A stretch of DNA of 63,617 nt from positions 1 to 63,617 of the forward strand of contig CAZFSZ010000003.1 of NCBI GenBank assembly GCA_964521755.1, in the 5' to 3' direction. The notes beneath the pieces are model-generated. The model saw only the letters and a program-made list of their open reading frames with translations, did no database searches and was not told the origin of the DNA. Below, piece by piece: positions 82 through 59,241 of this stretch (within the stretch, counting starts at the first letter, position 1; every line of letters starts with the position of its first letter). The stretch is from an uncultured Methanosarcinales archaeon. Lineage in GTDB: Archaea; Nanobdellota; Nanobdellia; Woesearchaeales; WJKL01. The position numbers and the translations under genes are program-made.

Positions 82-1026
82 ATGCCTTCACTTATCAAAT
101 TCAAGAATCTTACCAAACAATTCAAGGATAAAATAGTCCTAAAAAACATTAATCTTAAAATTAAAAAAGGAGAAATATTTGGCATTATTGGAATGTCTGG
201 TTCTGGAAAAACAACCTTGTTAAACACTTTGATTGGTTTTTTAGACCCTGAAAAAGGAGATATTTATTATTACAACAAAAAAACAAAAAAACATGAGCCG
301 ATTTCTGAAGATCCTCTTAAAAAAAGAAAGATGTTTGGCTTTGCAACTCAGATGCCGTCTTTTTACCCCAAATTAACAATAGAGGAAAATCTTGACCATT
401 TTGGCTCTCTTTATAACCTAAAAAGCAAGACAAGGAAAAAGAACATCAAAAGACTCCTTAAGATGATAGATTTAAAGTCTGAAAAAGACCTTCTTGCTCA
501 AACCCTTTCAGGAGGTATGGAAAAACGCCTGGGAATAGCATGCGCTCTTGTCCATGACCCTGATGTACTTATACTCGATGAACCAACCGCAAATCTTGAC
601 CCTGTTCTAAGAGAGGAGACATGGGGGCTTGTTGAAAAGATAAATAAGTCAGGCACTACAGTAATAGTAGCATCTCATCTGTTGGATGAACTTGAGCCAA
701 TCTGCAGCAGGATAGGGATACTCCATAATCATTCATTAGTCAAGATAGGGACACCTGACCAGTTAAAAGGAAAATATTCAAAAAATGAAGAGATAAGACT
801 TACTGTTTCAGGAAAACACAACCAAATAAAAAAAATAATGAAAAAAGCGCCATATATCAAAAAGATAAAAAAAGATGGAGACACCCTTATATTTTACACC
901 CCTAATCCACTAAAAACATTATATAATCTTTTAAATAAAGTTGATAAATTAAAGCAAAAGGTTTTGGAATTGGAGGTTAGCAGACCTTCACTAAAAGAAG
1001 TATTTGAGTCAATATATAGCAAATAA
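82..1026 (+). CDS. ABC transporter ATP-binding protein
   Basis: Walker A GMSGSGKTT, ABC signature LSGGMEKR, Walker B VLILDEPT. Confidence 0.9.
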   Translation: MPSLIKFKNLTKQFKDKIVLKNINLKIKKGEIFGIIGMSGSGKTTLLNTLIGFLDPEKGDIYYYNKKTKKHEPISEDPLKKRKMFGFATQMPSFYPKLTIEENLDHFGSLYNLKSKTRKKNIKRLLKMIDLKSEKDLLAQTLSGGMEKRLGIACALVHDPDVLILDEPTANLDPVLREETWGLVEKINKSGTTVIVASHLLDELEPICSRIGILHNHSLVKIGTPDQLKGKYSKNEEIRLTVSGKHNQIKKIMKKAPYIKKIKKDGDTLIFYTPNPLKTLYNLLNKVDKLKQKVLELEVSRPSLKEVFESIYSK

Positions 1027-1054
1027 AAGAGGTGAACTGCTTAAAGCAGCAAAG

Positions 1055-2716
1055 ATGCTTTCATTGTTTAAGATAATAAAGAAGAATCTAAAGTTGTTGA
1101 TCAGAAGCAAGAGCTCAGCTTTGATCATAATATTAGGTCCTTTGCTGGTTATTTTTCTTGTTGGAATAGCTTTTGATAACTTAAATCAATATAGTTTAAG
1201 TATAGGGACTTATTCAAAATCTTATTCTCCTTTAACTGACTCTTTTATAACTAAACTTGAGGGAAAGAATTTTAGGGTAGAAAAAATAAGTTCAGAAGAA
1301 GAGTGCATTGATCTGATAAGACAGGGAAAACTTAATACCTGCATAACTTTTCCCAAAAATCTGGATCTGGATTCAGATCAGATGAATGAGATTGTGTTTC
1401 ATGTTGATAATTCTAAGATAAATCTTGTCTGGATGGTTTTAGAGTCAATATCAGACAAGCTTTCTGAGCGTTCTTCAGAACTAAGCCTTGATCTGACCAC
1501 AGATCTGCTGAACAAGATAGATTTAACTAATGATGAACTTTATAAGATTCGGCCAACCATAACAAATCTTAAAACAGAAAACAAGAATTCAGCAGATCTT
1601 ATAGATGATGCAGAAAGAAGAATTACTGCAAATGTAAATGATTTAAGGAAAAAACAGGCAGCAATGCACACTACTTTGGTTCGTAAAATAAATAGCGCAC
1701 AAGAGTTGGTTTACGATATTAAACAAGTGATAGATCAGACAGAATATAATTCCACCAAACAAAAACTAGAGGAGCTAAAAACAGACCTCATTGCCCTAGA
1801 GAATAAAATAACAGTTCAGGGAGAGAGCCTTAGTGATTGGAAAATACTGGAAAATATATTAGAAGACATTAATGAAATCGCTATAAATAATCTTAATTCA
1901 ATAGACAACAATCTCAAAAAATCCGAAATCAAGATAAAAGAGATTCAGTCAGCGGTCAATAAAGTATATGGCGAAGTCTCTGACATAAAAATAACAAACG
2001 CAACCACTATTGTAAACCCAATAACAACGAGAATAAAGCCTGTAACCAGAGAAAGAAGTTATCTTAATTACCTATTCCCTGCTCTTGTAATTCTAGTAAT
2101 TATGTTCATATCAATTCTTTTGGGAAATACATTGGTTATGATGGAAAAACACTCTCCTGCTTATTTTAGGAATTTCATAACCCCAACTAGAGACATTATC
2201 TTTATTCTTGCAACTTATTTAACCAATGTCATTCTTGTATTTCTTCAACTGATAATTATTCTGTTGATTTCTTCTGTTTTCTTTAAAGCCCAGATTCTGT
2301 CTACAATTCCCGCCACAATCTTGATACTTTTATTGTCCATAACATTTTTTACTTTTGTAGGCATGACTATAGGATATATTTTTACTTCAGAAGAAACTTC
2401 AACACTTGCAGCAATATCCATAGGAGCAATATTTTTATTTCTCTCTAATGTAATCCTGCCATTAGAAACAATGCCTGATTCAATAAGGAATGCTGCAAGA
2501 TTCAATCCTTTTGTGCTTGGAGAATCCCTGTTAAGAAAAGCAATAATCTTTCAGACAAAATTTTCTCTGCTTTATAGGGATATTCTAACATTATTGGCAT
2601 ATTCACTTGTCCTGTTTTTGATTATATGGATATCTCAAAAGATAGTAAGAAAACATCTTATCCATAAGATCAGCTTTCATAAAAGCAAGCCAAAAAAGAA
2701 ACCAAAAAAGAAGTAG
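1055..2716 (+). CDS. ABC-2 type transporter permease with a large extracytoplasmic coiled-coil domain
   Basis: One N-terminal TM helix, a ~300-aa coiled-coil-rich segment, then about 5 C-terminal TM helices. It directly follows the ATPase. Start moved to the Met at 1055 because the ORF-track start at 1004 overlaps the upstream gene. Confidence 0.7.
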   Translation: MLSLFKIIKKNLKLLIRSKSSALIIILGPLLVIFLVGIAFDNLNQYSLSIGTYSKSYSPLTDSFITKLEGKNFRVEKISSEEECIDLIRQGKLNTCITFPKNLDLDSDQMNEIVFHVDNSKINLVWMVLESISDKLSERSSELSLDLTTDLLNKIDLTNDELYKIRPTITNLKTENKNSADLIDDAERRITANVNDLRKKQAAMHTTLVRKINSAQELVYDIKQVIDQTEYNSTKQKLEELKTDLIALENKITVQGESLSDWKILENILEDINEIAINNLNSIDNNLKKSEIKIKEIQSAVNKVYGEVSDIKITNATTIVNPITTRIKPVTRERSYLNYLFPALVILVIMFISILLGNTLVMMEKHSPAYFRNFITPTRDIIFILATYLTNVILVFLQLIIILLISSVFFKAQILSTIPATILILLLSITFFTFVGMTIGYIFTSEETSTLAAISIGAIFLFLSNVILPLETMPDSIRNAARFNPFVLGESLLRKAIIFQTKFSLLYRDILTLLAYSLVLFLIIWISQKIVRKHLIHKISFHKSKPKKKPKKK

Positions 2717-41687: not shown

Positions 41688-41806
41688 TGGGGATGCTGGG
41701 ATTCGAACCCAGATCTGGTGGTATATCCCAGGTATAATTCATCGTCTTTAGACTCATCGCTCCATGACTGGAGCCACCCATTCTAGCCAGGTTATACTAC
41801 ATCCCC
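41688..41806 (-). tRNA. tRNA-Trp (CCA) with a 45-nt intron at canonical position 37/38
   Basis: Acceptor GGGGATG/CATCCCC, anticodon stem GGTGG/CCACC with loop CTCCAG|A, T arm CTGGG-TTCGAAT-CCCAG. No encoded CCA. The D stem is weak. Confidence 0.82.
41723..41767 (-). other. tRNA-Trp intron (BHB)
   Basis: 3-nt bulges AG|U and AU|A are separated by the U33-A, C34-G, C35-G helix. The inner helix is CA.GG/CC.UG. Confidence 0.7.
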
Positions 41807-48982: not shown

Positions 48983-49170
48983 CCTTTCTTTTCCGACAGA
49001 TTTTTAAACCATCTTCCTCTCCTTTTTCTGTGATAAAAAATGCCCATAATTCTTTATTTCTAGACCACAGGTCACTGGACATTTACCCCCGTAAGATATT
49101 TAAGTGTTAGAATCTTATTTTTCTTTAAGATTTCTTCATTGAAATCCAATAAGCTCTCTGGTGATTTCAG

Positions 49171-50373
49171 ATGAATTCAAATATTCAGAAAAAATTAAAG
49201 CATTCTAAAAAAATAGATTTTACAGATAGTCCTTTCTCTAAAATTATATCCAATAAAAAGCATATTTCAAATATAATAAATATCGCTTCTAGAAAAATTA
49301 ACACAAAATTAAATACTCCAATTGCAAAAGGAATTAATATTGAATTAAGAACTTGGAAAAAATTTATTCAGGGAAAGTATATCAAATCTTTATCTTATGA
49401 TAGAATAAATAACTTTTGCAATATTTCCATAAATAGTGCTAGAAAAGGTATATATCTAATAGATGATATAAGAAATCCAAATCTTCCACTAAATTTTGAT
49501 TCAAAAGAAGGAGCAAGATTAGATGCAGGAATAATTAACGAAGGTAGGATGAGAGACAGGATAATAGAATATACCAATAAAGACAAAGAAGTATTAAATA
49601 AAATTTTAAAATACAGTAAAAAACTTTTAGGAAATAATTTTTCCCCCAATATTAGAATTGATAGGAGAGATAGCACACGATGCATCTCTTTTCCACCAAT
49701 TTTTGCAAAACATTATTCTAAATTAGGTTTTACAAAACAGAACAAAAGTTCAGCCCCAATTCATATTCCTCAATATATCTTAGATAATGAAGATTATCAA
49801 AAGATATGGTGGCAGGGAAACTTAAGCGAAGAAGCATCCATACATTATCTAATTCATAAAAATAAAAAACTCAAAAATACTTTCTATATAACTCCAAGAA
49901 TTCAATTGAATAGAGTAAAATCCGTAAAATTAAATTTATCTAATCTTAATAAAGAAACTACTTATTATCAAAAAGATTTACCCAAAAGCATTGTAACATC
50001 ATTGAAAATGAATCCTTTAAGATTGATGCTTGATGAAGCTAGCATATTAAATACATTTGATATCCAGACTCAACCATATTTTTCTAAACTTTATGTAAAT
50101 AAATTAAATCAGACAACTGCCACATATACTATCTTGCTTTATAAACTTGAAGACATAGAAAAATACATCACTAACATTGGATTTGAACTAAAAAGACATA
50201 AAAAACAGACAGAAATTTTATTTAATAGCCGAGGCAGACATAACCTAGGTGAAATAAGAGATATTTTAATAAAATTTTATAAATTGACACCAAAATACTT
50301 AAGAGGGATCAAAAAGATAAGGTTTAATAAGTGGTTATCTTTTGAAGATAAAAAAGAATTACTAAAAAAATAA
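49171..50373 (+). CDS. free-standing HTH plus double LAGLIDADG-like domain protein
   Basis: Motif-1-like GARLDAGIINEG and motif-2-like IPQYILDNEDYQKIWWQGNLSEEASI. The latter is colinear with IPQKILQSNNEIIASFLKGIFDAEGYV of the aRF1 intein in this window. The N-terminal IAKGINIELRTWKKFIQGK segment is HTH-like. No Hint splicing blocks. GGTGAT SD at 49160-49165. Confidence 0.5.
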   Translation: MNSNIQKKLKHSKKIDFTDSPFSKIISNKKHISNIINIASRKINTKLNTPIAKGINIELRTWKKFIQGKYIKSLSYDRINNFCNISINSARKGIYLIDDIRNPNLPLNFDSKEGARLDAGIINEGRMRDRIIEYTNKDKEVLNKILKYSKKLLGNNFSPNIRIDRRDSTRCISFPPIFAKHYSKLGFTKQNKSSAPIHIPQYILDNEDYQKIWWQGNLSEEASIHYLIHKNKKLKNTFYITPRIQLNRVKSVKLNLSNLNKETTYYQKDLPKSIVTSLKMNPLRLMLDEASILNTFDIQTQPYFSKLYVNKLNQTTATYTILLYKLEDIEKYITNIGFELKRHKKQTEILFNSRGRHNLGEIRDILIKFYKLTPKYLRGIKKIRFNKWLSFEDKKELLKK

Positions 50374-55157: not shown

Positions 55158-55182
55158 ATGATATCTCCCTTTTACATTAAGA

Positions 55183-55288
55183 TGGGGCTACCCAGACTCT
55201 CAAAGACAAAAACATATATTTTGCCTAATTTGAACTGGGGTCGTAGCGTCCCAAACGCCAAAGGCTAGCCAAACTACCCCATAGCCCC
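55183..55288 (-). tRNA. tRNA-Pro (UGG) with a 32-nt non-canonical intron in the T-loop (59/60)
   Basis: Acceptor GGGGCTA/TAGCCCC, D stem GGGT/GCCT, anticodon arm TGGCG-TTTGGGA-CGCTA, T stem CCCAG/CTGGG. The T-loop TTCAAA|T is interrupted by the intron. Confidence 0.8.
55197..55228 (-). other. tRNA-Pro T-loop intron (BHB)
   Basis: Outer helix is the T stem, followed by 3-nt bulge AG|U. The central 4 bp are UUCA/UGAG (one G-U), followed by 3-nt bulge AA|U. The inner helix is 8 bp, AGGCAAAA/UUUUGUCU. Cutting after the second bulge nucleotide restores a 7-nt T-loop. Confidence 0.7.
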
Positions 55289-55432: not shown

Positions 55433-58054
55433 ATGGCTCTAACATCAAAACAGAAGTTTGAATTGAAGAAATTGGTAAAAGAATTAAGCCGATATAGAGG
55501 GAGGCATACTGAATTGGTTAGTGTATATGTTCCTAAAGGTTATGATATGAACAAGATAATCAATCATCTGTCTCAAGAGCAGAGCACTGCTGAAAATATA
55601 AAGTCAAAATCAACCAGGAAAAATGTGATTGATGCGCTGGAAAAGATGATCCAGCACCTTAAGGTTTACAAAAAAACACCTGAGAACGGATTGGCTGTCT
55701 TTTCAGGCAATGTTGCTGAAAGAGAAGGGCAGTCAGATGTTCAGGTTTGGAGTGTAGAGCCTCCAGTGCACCTAAACCAAAGGCTTTACAGGTGTGACAA
55801 GGAATTTGTCCTTGAGCCTTTGGATATGATGCTGGAGCACAAGAATGTCTATGGGCTGGTTGTTATGGACAGGAGAGACGCCAATATCGCTCTCCTCAAG
55901 GGAAAAACCATAGTTCCGTTAACTAAAACCCATTCCCAGGTTCCTGGAAAGTTCCGTGCTGGGGGGCAATGTATCTCTCCCGATTCTCTAGTCCAGTTAT
56001 CTGATGGTTCTATACCTAAAATTAAAACCGTTCATAATCCAAATATAGTCAAATCAGTTATGATCAAAGACAGTTTTACAATTAACGATTCTAATATAAC
56101 AGATAAATGGAATGCAAAGAAGAAGCAAATTTATAAAATTATTACAAAAAATCCTCGTTTGGAGGTTCAATCTTCAAAAGATCATATTTTTTTTGTGGCT
56201 GCTTCTAATGGGCTTATTGAAAAACCTGCTGAAGAATTAAAAAAAGGAGACCATTTAATAATGCCAGAGAAAATAAATATCAAAGGAAAAACACATAGGT
56301 TAAATTCAAAAAAATATTATAATTCTTTTATAATTTCTAAGAAAGGTCAAAAACTTCTTAAACAAAAAAGACAAAAGAAAAAGCTATTTCAAAGACAATT
56401 AGCAAAAAAAATCAATGTAGCTCAAACTACAATCTCTTCTTATGAACTTGGAAAATTAAACGCAAAAAGAGAACAACTGAAAAAAATTTGTAATGCGTTA
56501 GATATAAATTTTAAAGATTTTATTAAAAACAACACCCGGCCATTTCTTTATAAAAAAATAAAATTGCCTATTAAATTAAATGAAAAATTTGCTCAATTTT
56601 TGGGATACCTCATAGGAGATGGTTGTATAGAGAAAGACAGAATAACATTTTTTGAACAATACAGGGATTTAGCGTTATCCTATCAAAAAAAATTTAGTAA
56701 ACTATTTGAAATGGATCTAAGCTATCGATTCAGAAAAAATAAAAATTACCATCAAATAAGATTCACAAGTAGGCCTTTAGTAAGATTAATTCAAAATGAA
56801 TTCCCTGAAATCAAAAAGTCATTAGATTCAGAAATTCCCCAAAAAATACTGCAGTCTAATAATGAAATCATTGCCTCGTTCTTAAAAGGTATTTTTGATG
56901 CTGAAGGGTATGTTTCTACAAGAAAACAGGTCGCACTTGGAATTAATAATAAAAGATTAGTTCAGCAGCTGCAGCTTGCGTTGTTAAGATTCAGTATAAT
57001 TGGCTCTATGCACGAATATGATAATAAGGTTAATATTCATAGCAATAATCCAAGATTTACATTAGATATAACAGAAAAAAAATCATTAAAATTATTTAAG
57101 AAATTTATTGGTTTTACCTCTAAAAAGAAAAGTGAAAAATTAAAATCTATAATAAAAAACAAATCTGGTAAAAGCAATATCAGACAAATTGTTGTTTCAG
57201 GAAGAAAAATAAAAAAAATAATCGAAAATGCAGGATATAATTTGCAATTATTCCCTAAAGTTAATTGTTTCTTCAGAAATGAAAGAATGATGGGTAAACA
57301 AACATTTAAAAATTCTATCTTATCAAATATAAAAGATGAAAAATTGTTTAAACAATTAGAAGAAATTTATCATTATTCTATTCTTCCAGTGAAGATTCAT
57401 GAAATAGAAAAAAGAAAAAAACCAACTAAAATGGTTGATATATCAGTAAAAAATCAAAACTTTATAGCAAATGGTTTAATTGTCCATAATTCTGCTCAGA
57501 GATTCGCAAGGATAAGAGAGGGAGCTGCCAAAAGGCACTACAAAAAAGTTGCTGACTATGTAAAGAACGAATTTCTAAAGAATAAAAATCTAAAGGGGAT
57601 CATAGTTGGGGGTCCTGGTCCGACTAAAGAGGATTTTGTTGAAGGAGGCTACCTTACAGGGGATTTAAAAAAGAAGGTGATTGCAGTTAAAGATCTGTCA
57701 TATACTGGAGACTTCGGTCTGCAGGAACTGGTAGACAAGTCCCAGGATGTTCTCGCAAAAGAAGAAATCGCTTTTGAAAAAAAGCTGATGGGCAATTTCT
57801 TTGAGATTCTTTCTAAAAATCCTGGAAAAGTAAGTTATGGAGAAAAAGAAGTGATGAAAAATTTAAAATTAGGGGCAGTAGACATCCTGCTTTTGTCAGA
57901 AGTTCTTGAAGATGAAAAGGTGGAAGAGTTTGAAAATGAATCAGAAAAAGTAGGCACAAATGTTGAGATTATCTCTACAGAGACAAGAGAAGGTGCTCAG
58001 CTGAAAGACATAGGAAAGATCGCGGCTATACTGAGATACGAAGTACAGCAATAA
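55433..58054 (+). CDS. prf1: peptide chain release factor aRF1, interrupted by an intein
   Basis: NIKS motif (AENIKSKS). The GGQ motif is followed directly by Cys1 of the intein, and the extein resumes SAQRFARIREG. The exteins total 366 aa. Confidence 0.92.
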   Translation: MALTSKQKFELKKLVKELSRYRGRHTELVSVYVPKGYDMNKIINHLSQEQSTAENIKSKSTRKNVIDALEKMIQHLKVYKKTPENGLAVFSGNVAEREGQSDVQVWSVEPPVHLNQRLYRCDKEFVLEPLDMMLEHKNVYGLVVMDRRDANIALLKGKTIVPLTKTHSQVPGKFRAGGQCISPDSLVQLSDGSIPKIKTVHNPNIVKSVMIKDSFTINDSNITDKWNAKKKQIYKIITKNPRLEVQSSKDHIFFVAASNGLIEKPAEELKKGDHLIMPEKINIKGKTHRLNSKKYYNSFIISKKGQKLLKQKRQKKKLFQRQLAKKINVAQTTISSYELGKLNAKREQLKKICNALDINFKDFIKNNTRPFLYKKIKLPIKLNEKFAQFLGYLIGDGCIEKDRITFFEQYRDLALSYQKKFSKLFEMDLSYRFRKNKNYHQIRFTSRPLVRLIQNEFPEIKKSLDSEIPQKILQSNNEIIASFLKGIFDAEGYVSTRKQVALGINNKRLVQQLQLALLRFSIIGSMHEYDNKVNIHSNNPRFTLDITEKKSLKLFKKFIGFTSKKKSEKLKSIIKNKSGKSNIRQIVVSGRKIKKIIENAGYNLQLFPKVNCFFRNERMMGKQTFKNSILSNIKDEKLFKQLEEIYHYSILPVKIHEIEKRKKPTKMVDISVKNQNFIANGLIVHNSAQRFARIREGAAKRHYKKVADYVKNEFLKNKNLKGIIVGGPGPTKEDFVEGGYLTGDLKKKVIAVKDLSYTGDFGLQELVDKSQDVLAKEEIAFEKKLMGNFFEILSKNPGKVSYGEKEVMKNLKLGAVDILLLSEVLEDEKVEEFENESEKVGTNVEIISTETREGAQLKDIGKIAAILRYEVQQ
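55970..57490 (+). mobile_element. 507-aa intein with an XRE-type HTH and a LAGLIDADG homing endonuclease, inserted between Q and S of GGQS
   Basis: Block A CISPDSLV, block B SSKDHIFF, C-terminal blocks MVDISVKNQNFIANGLIVHN followed by +1 Ser. LAGLIDADG motifs FLGYLIGDGCI and FLKGIFDAEGYV. HTH QRQLAKKINVAQTTISSYELGKLNAKREQLKKICNAL. Confidence 0.87.
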
Positions 58055-58321
58055 AAAATAAAAAATTAAAAAAATTAAATTCTAAAAATCTGTTCCTCTT
58101 AGAATCTCTTTCCAAAGCTCTTTTTCTATCTCATAGATTATATTTTCTTTTTCCCCAAATCTTTCTGCTCCCATATCACAGATTCCATTTTTTTGGTTAA
58201 ATATCTTTGTTCCCATTTTTCAACCCCCACAGGTTTTTCCCAGCTTTTGCTGGAATAATCATAATAAAGCATTACAAAAATATATACTTTTGCTGTGATA
58301 AGTATATAGCAAAAAGAAAAA

Positions 58322-58329
58322 TTTATATA
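58322..58329 (+). promoter_or_regulatory. TATA box (TTTATATA) for the AbrB-PhoU-like gene
   Basis: 25-32 nt upstream of the ATG at 58354. Confidence 0.4.
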
Positions 58330-58353
58330 GCTGTAGTAATATATATTAGTTAT

Positions 58354-59241
58354 ATGGAGTCAAGAAAAATCCAGTTGGTAGGAAATCGTTCTTATTCTGT
58401 CTCTCTTCCTAAAAAATGGGTATTAGCAAACAACCTAAAGGAAAAAGAGGTTGTTTTTATAGATATAAACAACAATGACGAATTGATAATTAAGAAAGCA
58501 GATACAGAAAACCAAAAAAAAGAAAGCATAACTGTCAACCTGGAAGAGATAGACAATATAGCAGAGTTTTTGATGATATGTTATGTTAAAAATATTAATA
58601 ATATCACCTTATTAACTAAAAAACAAGAATACGAAAAGATAAAATCAATAAGAAACGTACTTAAATATTTAGAAGGCTATGATATAATATCTGAAAACAA
58701 TAATAAGATAAAGATTTCATTCTTGTTCAACACCATCAATATCAATCTAAAAAAGATCCTTATCAGGATGAATTATCTGTTAAAATTAGAGCTGACTTCT
58801 ATAAGCAATAAAGACAATGAAGCATTAGAAGAAACAGAGACTTCTATCGATAAGTTATACCATCTTTCAAAAAGGATATTATTCTCCTGCATAAGAAACA
58901 AGAAATTAAGAAAAGAAAATGATATCAAACATGATGAAGATACCTTCTTTTACAAAGACATATTCAAAAAATTAGAAAATATCGGAGACAATATAGTTAA
59001 GCTGAAAAACCAGGATCTGTCCAAAAAAGAAACAAAAGAATTGAATAAATTTTTGGAATTGTTGTCGGATTTGTTGATAAAAAAGCAAGATGCCTCCAAA
59101 ATAAAGAATGCATTGTCAAAAATCAGGTTTAATTCTCAAGATGATTATACAGACAGGATATTGGGAAGATTAAATGAATTGGGCATAGATATAATTGAAA
59201 ATGCAGTTTCAATAAAGTTTAACAAAACCTACTTTTCATAA
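58354..59241 (+). CDS. SpoVT/AbrB-domain protein with a PhoU-like helical domain (archaeal phosphate-uptake-regulator-like)
   Basis: N-terminal KIQLVGNRSYSVSLPKKWV swapped-hairpin motif, then helical repeats. Start at MESRK, chosen on promoter spacing. Confidence 0.55.
   Translation: MESRKIQLVGNRSYSVSLPKKWVLANNLKEKEVVFIDINNNDELIIKKADTENQKKESITVNLEEIDNIAEFLMICYVKNINNITLLTKKQEYEKIKSIRNVLKYLEGYDIISENNNKIKISFLFNTININLKKILIRMNYLLKLELTSISNKDNEALEETETSIDKLYHLSKRILFSCIRNKKLRKENDIKHDEDTFFYKDIFKKLENIGDNIVKLKNQDLSKKETKELNKFLELLSDLLIKKQDASKIKNALSKIRFNSQDDYTDRILGRLNELGIDIIENAVSIKFNKTYFS

Follow-up and report, generated by a model that had tools for sequence, protein, structure and literature searches.

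The open reading frame at 55433..58054, on the plus strand of the window (the whole stretch of DNA analysed, 63,617 nucleotides), encodes an 873-aa precursor of aRF1, the only aRF1 copy found within the window. The precursor matches the Pfam domains eRF1_1, eRF1_2 and eRF1_3, and scores 410 bits against the NCBIfam aRF1 equivalog TIGR03676 (cut-off 234.7). The NIKS (ENIKSK), YxCxxxF (YRCDKEF) and GGQ motifs are all found, the last of them interrupted by an intein. The N-extein (aa 1-179, 55433..55969), as located by Pfam and TIGR03676, covers domain N, where NIKS and YxCxxxF lie, together with the first part of domain M, and ends with GKFRAGGQ; the C-extein (57491..58054) starts with SAQRFARIREG and runs through the stop codon, comprising the remainder of domain M and domain C. 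Both, like all features described below, lie on the plus strand. Joined without the intein, the exteins form a 366-aa aRF1, 94% identical to the intein-free protein P0121, which reads GGQ|SAQRFARIREG at the equivalent place.

The intein is of class 1, 507 aa long, and occupies precursor aa 180-686 (55970..57490), between Q and S of GGQS. It starts with CISPDSLV, where Cys1 is aa 180, encoded from position 55970, and ends with LIVHN, where the terminal Asn is aa 686 and its codon closes at 57490; the penultimate residue is His506, the last Asn507, and the +1 residue Ser. The N-terminal part of the HINT domain (intein aa 1-122, 55970..56335) includes block B, S69-K-D-H72, at 56174..56185; the C-terminal part (intein aa 471-507, 57380..57490) contains blocks F and G, with D490 and H506-N507. 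The Pfam family Intein_splicing is matched with 80.8 bits (cut-off 35.8), and the NCBIfam model TIGR01443, intein_Cterm, with 24.7 bits (cut-off 15.6). The boundaries, indicated by Pfam, NCBIfam and the AF2 model, are independently supported by an empty site: the syntenic contig L001 carries an intein-free aRF1, 94% identical in its extein, where the site is precisely empty (...GCTGGTGGGCAA|TCAGCTCAAAGATTC...), and the blastn alignment of the window with this contig breaks exactly at 55970 and 57491. The sequence-only reading had placed a 507-aa intein at the Q|S junction of aRF1, bounded by Cys1 and by HN followed by Ser+1, and all of this is borne out by the reading frame coordinates, the family scores and the alignment with an intein-free aRF1; the Hint blocks, whose absence would have spoken against it, are present. 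A chimera of assembly, which had also been considered, is excluded, since identical architecture and junctions recur in more than 100 independent assemblies.

Inteins at the same site are numerous: at least 214 distinct ones were collected. Cys1, HN and Ser+1 are found in 120 of the 120 top hits. In all 214 the block-B His (H72) and the block-F Asp are invariant, and position 69 is either S or T; the invariance of Cys1 and of the terminal Asn in this larger set is circular, as the set was collected by a pattern demanding both. From these motifs we infer that the precursor is made as one chain and that its HINT domain excises the intein.

The AF2 model of the intein (pLDDT 94.5, pTM 0.92) shows three further modules between the two HINT parts. 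The largest is a double-motif LAGLIDADG core (intein aa 205-397, 56582..57160), recognised by Pfam, AF2 and Foldseek. Its first motif, LGYLIGDG (56600..56623), supplies the acid D217, and the second, LKGIFDAEG (56882..56908), the acid E312; the core matches LAGLIDADG_3 with 53.8 bits (cut-off 22.5). Both motifs and the family match confirm the double LAGLIDADG core proposed from the sequence. In the model the endonuclease folds into two alpha-beta-beta-alpha-beta-beta-alpha halves, and Foldseek matches it to I-DmoI and I-Tsp061I, with a TM to target of about 0.7. The catalytic acids, at the positions of D217 and E312, survive in 211 of the 214 inteins; P0088, L037 and L070 are the three homologues with acid loss. 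The endonuclease columns are the best-conserved portion of the intein. The nested LAGLIDADG homing endonuclease is apparently active.

Between HINT-N and the endonuclease lies an XRE/Cro-C1-type helix-turn-helix (HTH) domain of five helices (intein aa 124-188, 56339..56533). Pfam HTH_3 is matched at intein aa 130-183 with 45.2 bits (cut-off 23, E 9e-12); HTH_26 scores 26.8 bits against a cut-off of 22, and HTH_19 falls exactly at the cut-off (30.2 against 30.2). The helices of the AF2 model span residues 124-136, 141-147, 152-160, 167-176 and 181-188, with pLDDT 94-97; the string from which the domain had originally been recognised corresponds to intein aa 141-177 (56390..56500). While the presence and the position of the domain, as originally noticed, hold, the accompanying claim that it falls outside the standard architecture of inteins was overstated. 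The HTH is present in 185 of the 214 aRF1-site inteins, and the same HINT-HTH-LAGLIDADG layout is found in inteins of FttA, of Top6A, of an MBL-fold protein and of a DHHA1 protein; moreover, all solved endonuclease-bearing inteins have accessory domains, two of them HTH-like (PMC8966425). The domain is cleanly absent from 28 of the 214, where it corresponds to a clean indel of about 77 aa, and the HTH-less forms, for example the 431-aa intein of P0259 or L036, are scattered across the intein tree. The acids of the endonuclease are still there in these 28, and the element can therefore persist without the HTH. The recognition helix reads Q-T-x-I-S among aRF1 alleles, with Q152 and S156 conserved in at least 80% of them, and differs in inteins of other hosts. 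On sequence grounds, the HTH is probably an old modular piece of a wider archaeal intein family, with several clean losses, and is best read as an accessory DNA-binding module, rather than as a regulator specific to aRF1.

A second accessory module, of four helices, follows the endonuclease and precedes HINT-C in the AF2 model (intein aa 411-467, 57200..57370). It was also modelled alone by AF2, with pLDDT 91. A Foldseek search with the isolated module gave nothing significant, all matches being at E = 1 or worse; those at the top, weak at TM 0.35-0.5, are XRE-family HTH domains. Its position is that of the "ACD" of the Tli and Pho VMA inteins (PMC8966425, Beyer & Iwai 2022).

Hosts of the aRF1-site inteins are Woesearchaeota, Aenigmatarchaeota, Iainarchaeota, Nanohaloarchaea, Micrarchaeota and Thaumarchaeota; the family is common in tiny DPANN archaea. 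Intein length is nearly constant: among the 120 top hits, 108 were measured by pattern, and every one of these is 503-510 aa long. Since the available pairs share about 55-70% protein identity and their synonymous sites are saturated, amino-acid conservation was used instead of dN/dS: column conservation is 0.62-0.72 for the intein vs 0.67-0.73 for the extein, and mean pairwise identity is 0.58 among inteins and 0.60 among exteins. A survey of prf1 among relatives found both intein-bearing and precisely empty sites. The best 120 extein relatives listed are all intein-free, and for 31 of the 108 intein-bearing exteins the nearest neighbour is intein-free, a statistic drawn from two differently biased lists of 120 top hits. 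No systematic difference separates the target sites of alleles with the intein from those of alleles without it, and no systematic "immunising" synonymous changes were found at the target site in the latter.

The distances between inteins correlate with those between their exteins (Mantel r = 0.56; none of 999 permutations attained this value), which argues for mostly vertical descent; a long residence with such descent is the best reading of these sequence comparisons. At this locus the GC content of the intein is 26%, vs 41% for the extein. This cannot be taken as a sign of recent foreign origin, since the intein is below the extein at 58 of the 59 loci and its GC follows that of each host genome. 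A scan of viral contigs for a vector gave only relatives of 29% identity or less, none of them in aRF1. A free-standing LAGLIDADG reading frame next to an intein-free aRF1 (L098) was also considered, and has no similarity to the domains of the aRF1 intein.

A separate observation concerns the motif itself. In a clade of aRF1 orthologues of Aenigmatarchaeota type GGQ is replaced by GGW, and others read GGM, GGF or GGS. For the GGW, GGM and GGF alleles, a shift of the splice boundaries, restoring GGQ from the Gln at +2, is rejected: only the standard boundaries give a canonical spacing to R-[FY], and GGWSA proteins exist which are intein-free. These variants put the "universal" GGQ in question, and may matter more than the intein.

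Taken as a whole, the locus is best explained, with a probability of about 0.78, by a canonical class-1 homing intein, inserted at GGQ|S in the aRF1 of a Woesearchaeota-type DPANN archaeon, with the HTH as an accessory DNA-binding module. Translation would yield the single 873-aa chain; HINT would then excise the 507-aa intein and join GGQ with SAQRF, so that an ordinary aRF1 of 366 aa results. Either the freed intein or the precursor would serve as a site-specific endonuclease against prf1 alleles that lack the intein, cutting at or near GGNCAR|TCNGC, and repair would copy the intein in. Such homing is predicted from the intact endonuclease combined with the patchy presence of the element, and would be the reason why the element persists with an intact endonuclease across DPANN phyla, beside precisely empty sites. 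The XRE-type HTH_3 would add contacts next to the LAGLIDADG target of about 20 bp, in a role comparable to that of the DRR of PI-SceI or of the ACDs of archaeal VMA inteins. Conservation of the whole intein at the rate of an essential host protein, over phylum-level divergence, goes beyond the prediction of a simple invade-fix-decay homing cycle, and a role beneficial to the host could fit it too.

A different view, for which we see a small chance, is that the intein has been domesticated: splicing would be a switch gating the supply of active aRF1, and the HTH would make the intein or the precursor a DNA-binding regulator, as in WhiA. The intein does evolve no faster than the essential extein at nearly constant length, persists over at least six archaeal phyla, carries a bona fide XRE-type HTH and has WhiA (3hyi) among its structural neighbours; other archaeal inteins are documented to splice conditionally, RadA being an example cited in PMC4760082. 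Against these points stand the almost general retention of the endonuclease acids, which WhiA-like proteins have lost, the repeated loss of the HTH while the intein stays, and the identical HTH module in inteins of unrelated host genes. Precisely empty sites are, moreover, common in close relatives, so the host thrives without the intein. A stronger form appears very improbable: the intein would have been kept over phylum-level time since splicing gates, after translation, the sole activity for peptide release of the cell (termination might be slowed under stress, for instance), and the excised intein would also be a DNA-binding regulator. If true, it would mean that a mobile element was recruited for the control of translation termination in archaea with reduced genomes.

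It is also very improbable that the element is a decaying relic, with splicing kept, endonuclease and HTH non-functional, and vertical inheritance until loss. The correlation of intein and extein distances, with its mostly vertical descent, agrees with such a history, as do the GC content of the intein, matching that of each host genome, and the lack of an evident vector, viral contigs providing distant relatives only. A dead endonuclease should, however, shed its acids and gain indels, yet acid loss is confined to three homologues, lengths vary by a few residues, and the endonuclease columns are the most conserved ones. That the HTH is directed to the ribosome or to RNA, being kin to MBF1/EDF1, whose HTH binds the small ribosomal subunit, and holding the precursor of aRF1, or the intein once excised, at the ribosome, was suggested by weak PDB sequence matches to EDF1/MBF1 chains (E 4e-3 to 7e-3) and by a 26-bit match to the aMBF1 model TIGR00270. 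The latter is far under its cut-off of 110, and ordinary XRE DNA-binding proteins match equally well or better (C.BclI in the PDB; RstR, HipB and DicA in NCBIfam); the module is also carried by inteins whose hosts are DNA and RNA enzymes unconnected with the ribosome. These matches being too weak and non-specific, a ribosome-binding HTH of MBF1 type was rejected, and we consider it the remotest of explanations.

On the best reading, then, the aRF1 intein behaves as a textbook homing intein, and no new principle is needed. The sequence-only reading had asked whether an insertion allele in the aRF1 GGQ is already catalogued: the database search showed it to be abundant in public sequence data, under the JGI automatic annotation [quoted passage not shown]. 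A literature search found no paper on an aRF1 intein, or on an XRE-type HTH within an intein. The main text of Novikova et al. 2016 (PMC4760082) describes inteins as rare in core translation proteins, naming aIF2 and RNA polymerase, and no release factor. The interest of the locus lies in the position of the intein, at the catalytic GGQ tip of the sole class-I release factor, where every termination event would need splicing; such a dependence may reasonably be expected here, as for any intein in the active-site motif of a single-copy essential gene. The interest lies also in the size of the family, spread over several phyla with its endonuclease intact. The natural versions with and without HTH, at one target site, provide a ready comparison for the roles of accessory DNA-binding domains, and aRF1 inteins are a possible source of new meganuclease scaffolds.

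Among known systems, the closest are the archaeal inteins TliVMA/PhoVMA (7QSS, 7QST), PI-PfuI (1DQ3) and PI-TkoII/PI-PkoII (2CW7), which share with the aRF1 intein the HINT domain, the double-motif LAGLIDADG and a helical domain before HINT-C. They are the best matches both by PDB sequence and by Foldseek (E 5e-24, for TliVMA 7qss, to 2e-16; TM to target 0.64-0.77), although overall identity is only 14-18%. The insertion sites differ, being the aRF1 GGQ|S here and the V-ATPase P-loop, RNR or DNA polymerase in the solved archaeal inteins. The aRF1 intein has an extra XRE-type HTH_3 between HINT-N and the first LAGLIDADG helix, where VMA inteins feature a loop of 28-32 residues (PMC8966425). The ACDs of TliVMA and PI-TkoII have themselves been described as HTH-like, and accessory domains of endonuclease inteins modulate DNA recognition (PMC8966425).

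In PI-SceI, the yeast VMA1 intein, the DRR lies on the N-terminal side of the endonuclease, in or next to HINT, and similarly widens the DNA contacts (PMC8966425). The structural match (1vde, 1lws; E 2e-12 to 7e-10) comes with a poor global superposition (rmsd about 25 A, TM 0.4), and the DRR is not an XRE-type HTH, nor is the host an archaeon but a eukaryote. The inteins of aIF2/IF-2, of RNA polymerase A'' and of FttA/aCPSF1 are likewise homing inteins that interrupt conserved motifs of essential proteins of information processing, with a different host gene: the NCBIfam models of intein-containing IF-2 and RpoA'' match the aRF1 intein, and the FttA inteins P0318, P0338 and P0388 feature the identical HINT-HTH_3-LAGLIDADG order. 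The bacterial transcription factor WhiA, a domesticated LAGLIDADG protein devoid of the catalytic acids, resembles the aRF1 intein in combining a LAGLIDADG fold with an HTH. WhiA, however, is free-standing and without HINT, and has its HTH at the C-terminal end, whereas the aRF1 intein features a HINT domain and conserved acids.

The aRF1 precursor is encoded in the window by a single long ORF of 873 aa (55433..58054, forward strand), where Pfam matches eRF1 domains 1, 2 and 3 and the NCBIfam aRF1 model TIGR03676 scores 410 bits (cut-off 234.7). The intein starts with CISPDSLV at residue 180 (nt 55970) and ends with IVHN at residue 686 (nt 57490): it is 507 aa long, as the sequence-only reading had it, and is flanked by GKFRAGGQ and SAQRFARIREG. 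It is the only intein, in the only aRF1 gene, within the window. The insert matches Pfam Intein_splicing (80.8 bits, cut-off 35.8) and LAGLIDADG_3 (53.8 bits, cut-off 22.5); the NCBIfam intein C-terminal model is above its cut-off, the N-terminal one slightly below (20.5 vs 24.5 bits). The extra helix-turn-helix (HTH) proposed in the same reading is recovered as an HTH_3 domain at intein residues 130-183 (45.2 bits, cut-off 23). At 26.0%, the intein is poorer in GC than the two exteins (42.1% and 38.8%) and the window as a whole (31.8%).

In an AlphaFold2 model based on 83 homologues (pLDDT 94.5, pTM 0.92), HINT strands occupy intein residues 1-122 and 471-507, the five helices of HTH_3 residues 124-188, the two alpha-beta-beta-alpha-beta-beta-alpha halves of the endonuclease residues 205-397, and a further four helices residues 411-467. 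The LAGLIDADG motifs are LGYLIGD217G and LKGIFDAE312G. By sequence and structure prediction, both endonuclease acids are present, HTH and folds are intact, and the set of residues for class-1 splicing is complete.

When the spliced 366-aa extein is used as a query, every one of the best 120 matches is an aRF1 that lacks an intein, is about 365 aa long and comes from Woesearchaeota or Nanoarchaeota. The top match, P0121 (94% identity), is encoded by L001, a 71 kb contig collinear with the window: the two share ribosomal protein L37ae, Pcc1 and prefoldin upstream, histone and aIF5A downstream. By blastn, about 14 kb align at 82% identity; the alignment stops at window position 55970 and restarts at 57491, and the empty site of L001 reads GGGCAA|TCAGCT, with zero bases between. 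The two contigs therefore differ by the clean, in-frame presence or absence of 1521 bp at Q|S of GGQS, the very junction originally claimed. An assembly chimera is ruled out, as the GGQ|C ... HN|S junctions are identical in all of the 120 best intein matches, which come from independent assemblies.

Other features of the neighbourhood may be reported here. An insertion of about 1.1 kb with low GC (58095..59228), directly downstream of aRF1, is absent in L001, where the flanks are contiguous; its ORF (58207..59241, forward strand, about 295-344 aa) has an N-terminal AbrB/MazE-type domain (Pfam MazE_antitoxin, 34.8 bits). A second segment specific to the window relative to L001 (49044..50453) contains an ORF of 401 aa (49165..50370, forward strand), with no Pfam match. 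Just upstream of aRF1, in the spacer separating it from L37ae, lies an unannotated tRNA-Pro(UGG) (55180..55288, reverse strand); its intron, about 30-33 nt long, is at a non-canonical position, in the T-arm/T-loop region. It is missed by both ARAGORN and Rfam, and is called as tRNA-Pro (tgg) by ARAGORN after in-silico removal of the intron; its 5' half matches at the same place in L001. Another tRNA match, of 119 nt (41688..41806, reverse strand; Rfam, 44.7 bits), is unreported by ARAGORN and presumably carries an intron. In a related locus, L098, a free-standing ORF of 214 aa that contains two LAGLIDADG-like motifs (423..1067, reverse strand) is found immediately upstream of an intein-free aRF1, in the position of L37ae, Pcc1 and prefoldin of other genomes; no similarity was detected between this ORF and the domains of the aRF1 intein.

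Used as a query, the intein alone retrieves 342 database clusters at E <= 1e-5, and the 120 top-ranking ones consist entirely of aRF1 precursors: most are about 870 aa long, some are partial, intein identities are 53-71%, and nearly all carry HTH_3. These proteins are already public under automatic names: 'helix-turn-helix domain-containing protein' for many at NCBI, 'peptide subunit release factor 1 (eRF1)/intein/homing endonuclease' for some at JGI. Searched exhaustively, the representatives at 50% identity yield 3932 matches at E <= 1e-3, among which aRF1 GGQ-site inteins reach down to about 29% identity. Scanning one genome per GTDB species gives 79 loci, about 60 of which are aRF1 with an intein at the GGQ site; hosts are Woesearchaeota/Nanoarchaeota, Aenigmatarchaeota, Iainarchaeota/Diapherotrites, Nanohaloarchaea, Micrarchaeota and Thaumarchaeota/Nitrososphaerales. 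Among these genomes, two are complete (Ca. Forterrea and Ca. Fermentimicrarchaeum). All searches pooled, 214 distinct inteins occupy this site. Four loci (L004, L011, L026, L028) feature a typical Woesearchaeota-type aRF1 with intein (identity 58-62% in the first three, 46% in L028), yet are titled 'uncultured Methanosarcinales archaeon', probably through a binning or labelling error. In two Thaumarchaeota/Nitrososphaerales loci (L055, L061), and likewise for proteins P0301 and P0314, the aRF1 gene contains two inteins, one at GGQ|S and the other within the stop-codon-recognition motif YxCxxxF (Y-L-Y-R/M | C...VHN | C-D-D-H), where the +1 nucleophile is the invariant Cys of the motif.

Conservation was evaluated on 106 full-length Woesearchaeota-type precursors: intein domains and exteins are conserved to the same degree, the commonest residue having a mean frequency of 0.62-0.72 in the former versus 0.67-0.73 in the latter, with gaps nearly absent. 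Pairwise identity averages 0.58 among inteins and 0.60 among exteins. All 214 inteins keep the block-B His and block-F Asp, and 211 keep both endonuclease acids. Neither Cys1 nor the terminal Asn varies in the 214, but the collecting pattern required them; independent support for both comes from the junctions of the 120 best matches. Conservation and distribution fit an endonuclease maintained through selection.

Intein and extein distances are correlated (Mantel r 0.56, reached by 0 of 999 permutations). Their nearest neighbours agree in 32 of 108 cases, and for 31 of the 108 intein-bearing exteins the nearest neighbour lacks an intein, the comparison being between two differently biased search lists. 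Intein GC tracks the host genome, with 21% in Forterrea and 52% in Thaumarchaeota as extremes, and falls below extein GC in 58 of 59 loci: the GC dip of the window is thus a family trait, and recent import was rejected as its cause. The 66-bp target regions of 5 intein-free and 18 intein-bearing Woesearchaeota-type alleles vary at scattered synonymous positions alone, and no class-specific change was found between the two sets. Inheritance looks mostly vertical, and the data fit a long-resident homing element in dynamic equilibrium, lost repeatedly and probably regained.

The HTH is present in 185 of the 214 inteins, absent in 28 and intermediate in one. In an alignment of 14 diverse members, the two without it (429 and 431 aa) match the others before and after the domain and are short of about 77 residues corresponding to it. 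HTH-less forms are scattered amid HTH-bearing ones in a neighbour-joining tree built with HTH columns removed and without support values, which points to several independent deletions. The same order of HINT-N, HTH_3 and LAGLIDADG is found in inteins of FttA/aCPSF1 (3 examples), Top6A, an MBL/RMMBL protein, a DHHA1 protein and two further hosts. Other inteins have, at the place of the HTH, a segment of 85-90 residues with significant (HTH_26, HTH_3, HTH_7), weak or no Pfam match. The recognition helix starts with Q-T-x-I-S in aRF1 alleles of several phyla, Q152 and S156 being at least 80% conserved, and inteins of other hosts differ at these positions, in a comparison of few sequences. The HTH is most simply read as an old, modular DNA-binding accessory of the intein lineage, tuned to each target gene, dispensable and not peculiar to aRF1. 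A PDB sequence search matches it to a designed DNA-binding protein, to C.BclI and, equally weakly, to EDF1/MBF1; the MBF1 resemblance, being weak, was not taken as meaningful. Bacterial inteins from CPR and Omnitrophota (L064, L066, L067, L074, L076, L078), 22-29% identical to the aRF1 intein, also feature a segment of about 90 aa between HINT-N and endonuclease; they follow a G-[IV]-[GA]-H | C motif in a host protein about 1050-1130 aa long.

The aRF1 of the window is of the GGQ type, but 21 of 226 intein-bearing aRF1 sequences have W, M, F or S, not Q, before Cys1. These variants, with NIKS and YxCxxxF intact, occur at 5 or more places in the extein tree, beside GGQ|SQ forms: GGW in L042, L046 and L070, GGM in L063 and L080, GGS in L050, GGF in proteins P0250, P0269, P0277 and P0294; L081 also belongs to the aRF1 orthologues departing from the 'universal' GGQ. 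With the spliced GGW extein of P0264 as a query, 118 of the 120 best matches (P0394-P0513) are intein-free GGW proteins of about 400-405 aa (85 GGWSQ, 33 GGWSA), so that the departure from GGQ is independent of the intein. On the aRF1 equivalog model these proteins reach 463-497 bits (cut-off 234.7). Genes that flank GGW and GGM loci, among them an upstream class-I aminoacyl-tRNA synthetase, also flank GGQ-type loci of related Aenigmatarchaeota, which suggests orthologues rather than extra copies. Many substitutions of this glutamine keep partial hydrolysis in vitro, in bacterial RF1/RF2 and in eRF1; a natural clade without it would still be unexpected.

The precursor would splice to yield a normal aRF1. 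Before splicing, the GGQ tip would be broken by a 57-kDa insert and the peptidyl-transferase centre out of reach; in a small DPANN genome with one aRF1, of which 64 kb were inspected, it is plausible that all termination depends on splicing. The freed intein would cut intein-less prf1 genes, repair would copy the intein in, and the HTH would extend or strengthen the DNA contact. Alternatively, the intein might be a domesticated switch or regulator, or a decaying relic, or its HTH might bind the ribosome. Against these views stand the retained catalytic acids, the common empty sites, the apparently repeated loss of the HTH and the occurrence of the same module in unrelated hosts, and a plain homing intein is therefore favoured.

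Endonuclease inteins bearing accessory DNA-binding domains are well known, and inteins as a rule sit in active-site motifs of essential genes. No description of an intein in aRF1 or eRF1, or of an XRE-type HTH_3 domain inside an intein, was found in the open-access literature: host and site are probably new, the kind of element is not, and the HTH variant is noteworthy, with precedent. The top structural match in the PDB (Foldseek) is the TliVMA intein (E 5e-24), followed by PI-PfuI, PI-TkoII, the PhoVMA intein, then PI-SceI; the free-standing I-DmoI and I-Tsp061I, and also WhiA, rank lower. The four-helix module, modelled alone (pLDDT 91), gives no significant Foldseek match and a weak XRE-like resemblance; it takes the place of the 'accessory domain' of VMA inteins (Beyer and Iwai, PMC8966425). 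HTH_3 is a second accessory domain; it follows HINT-N and precedes the first LAGLIDADG helix, at a point where VMA inteins have just a loop; closer to it in position is the DNA recognition region of PI-SceI (PMC8966425).
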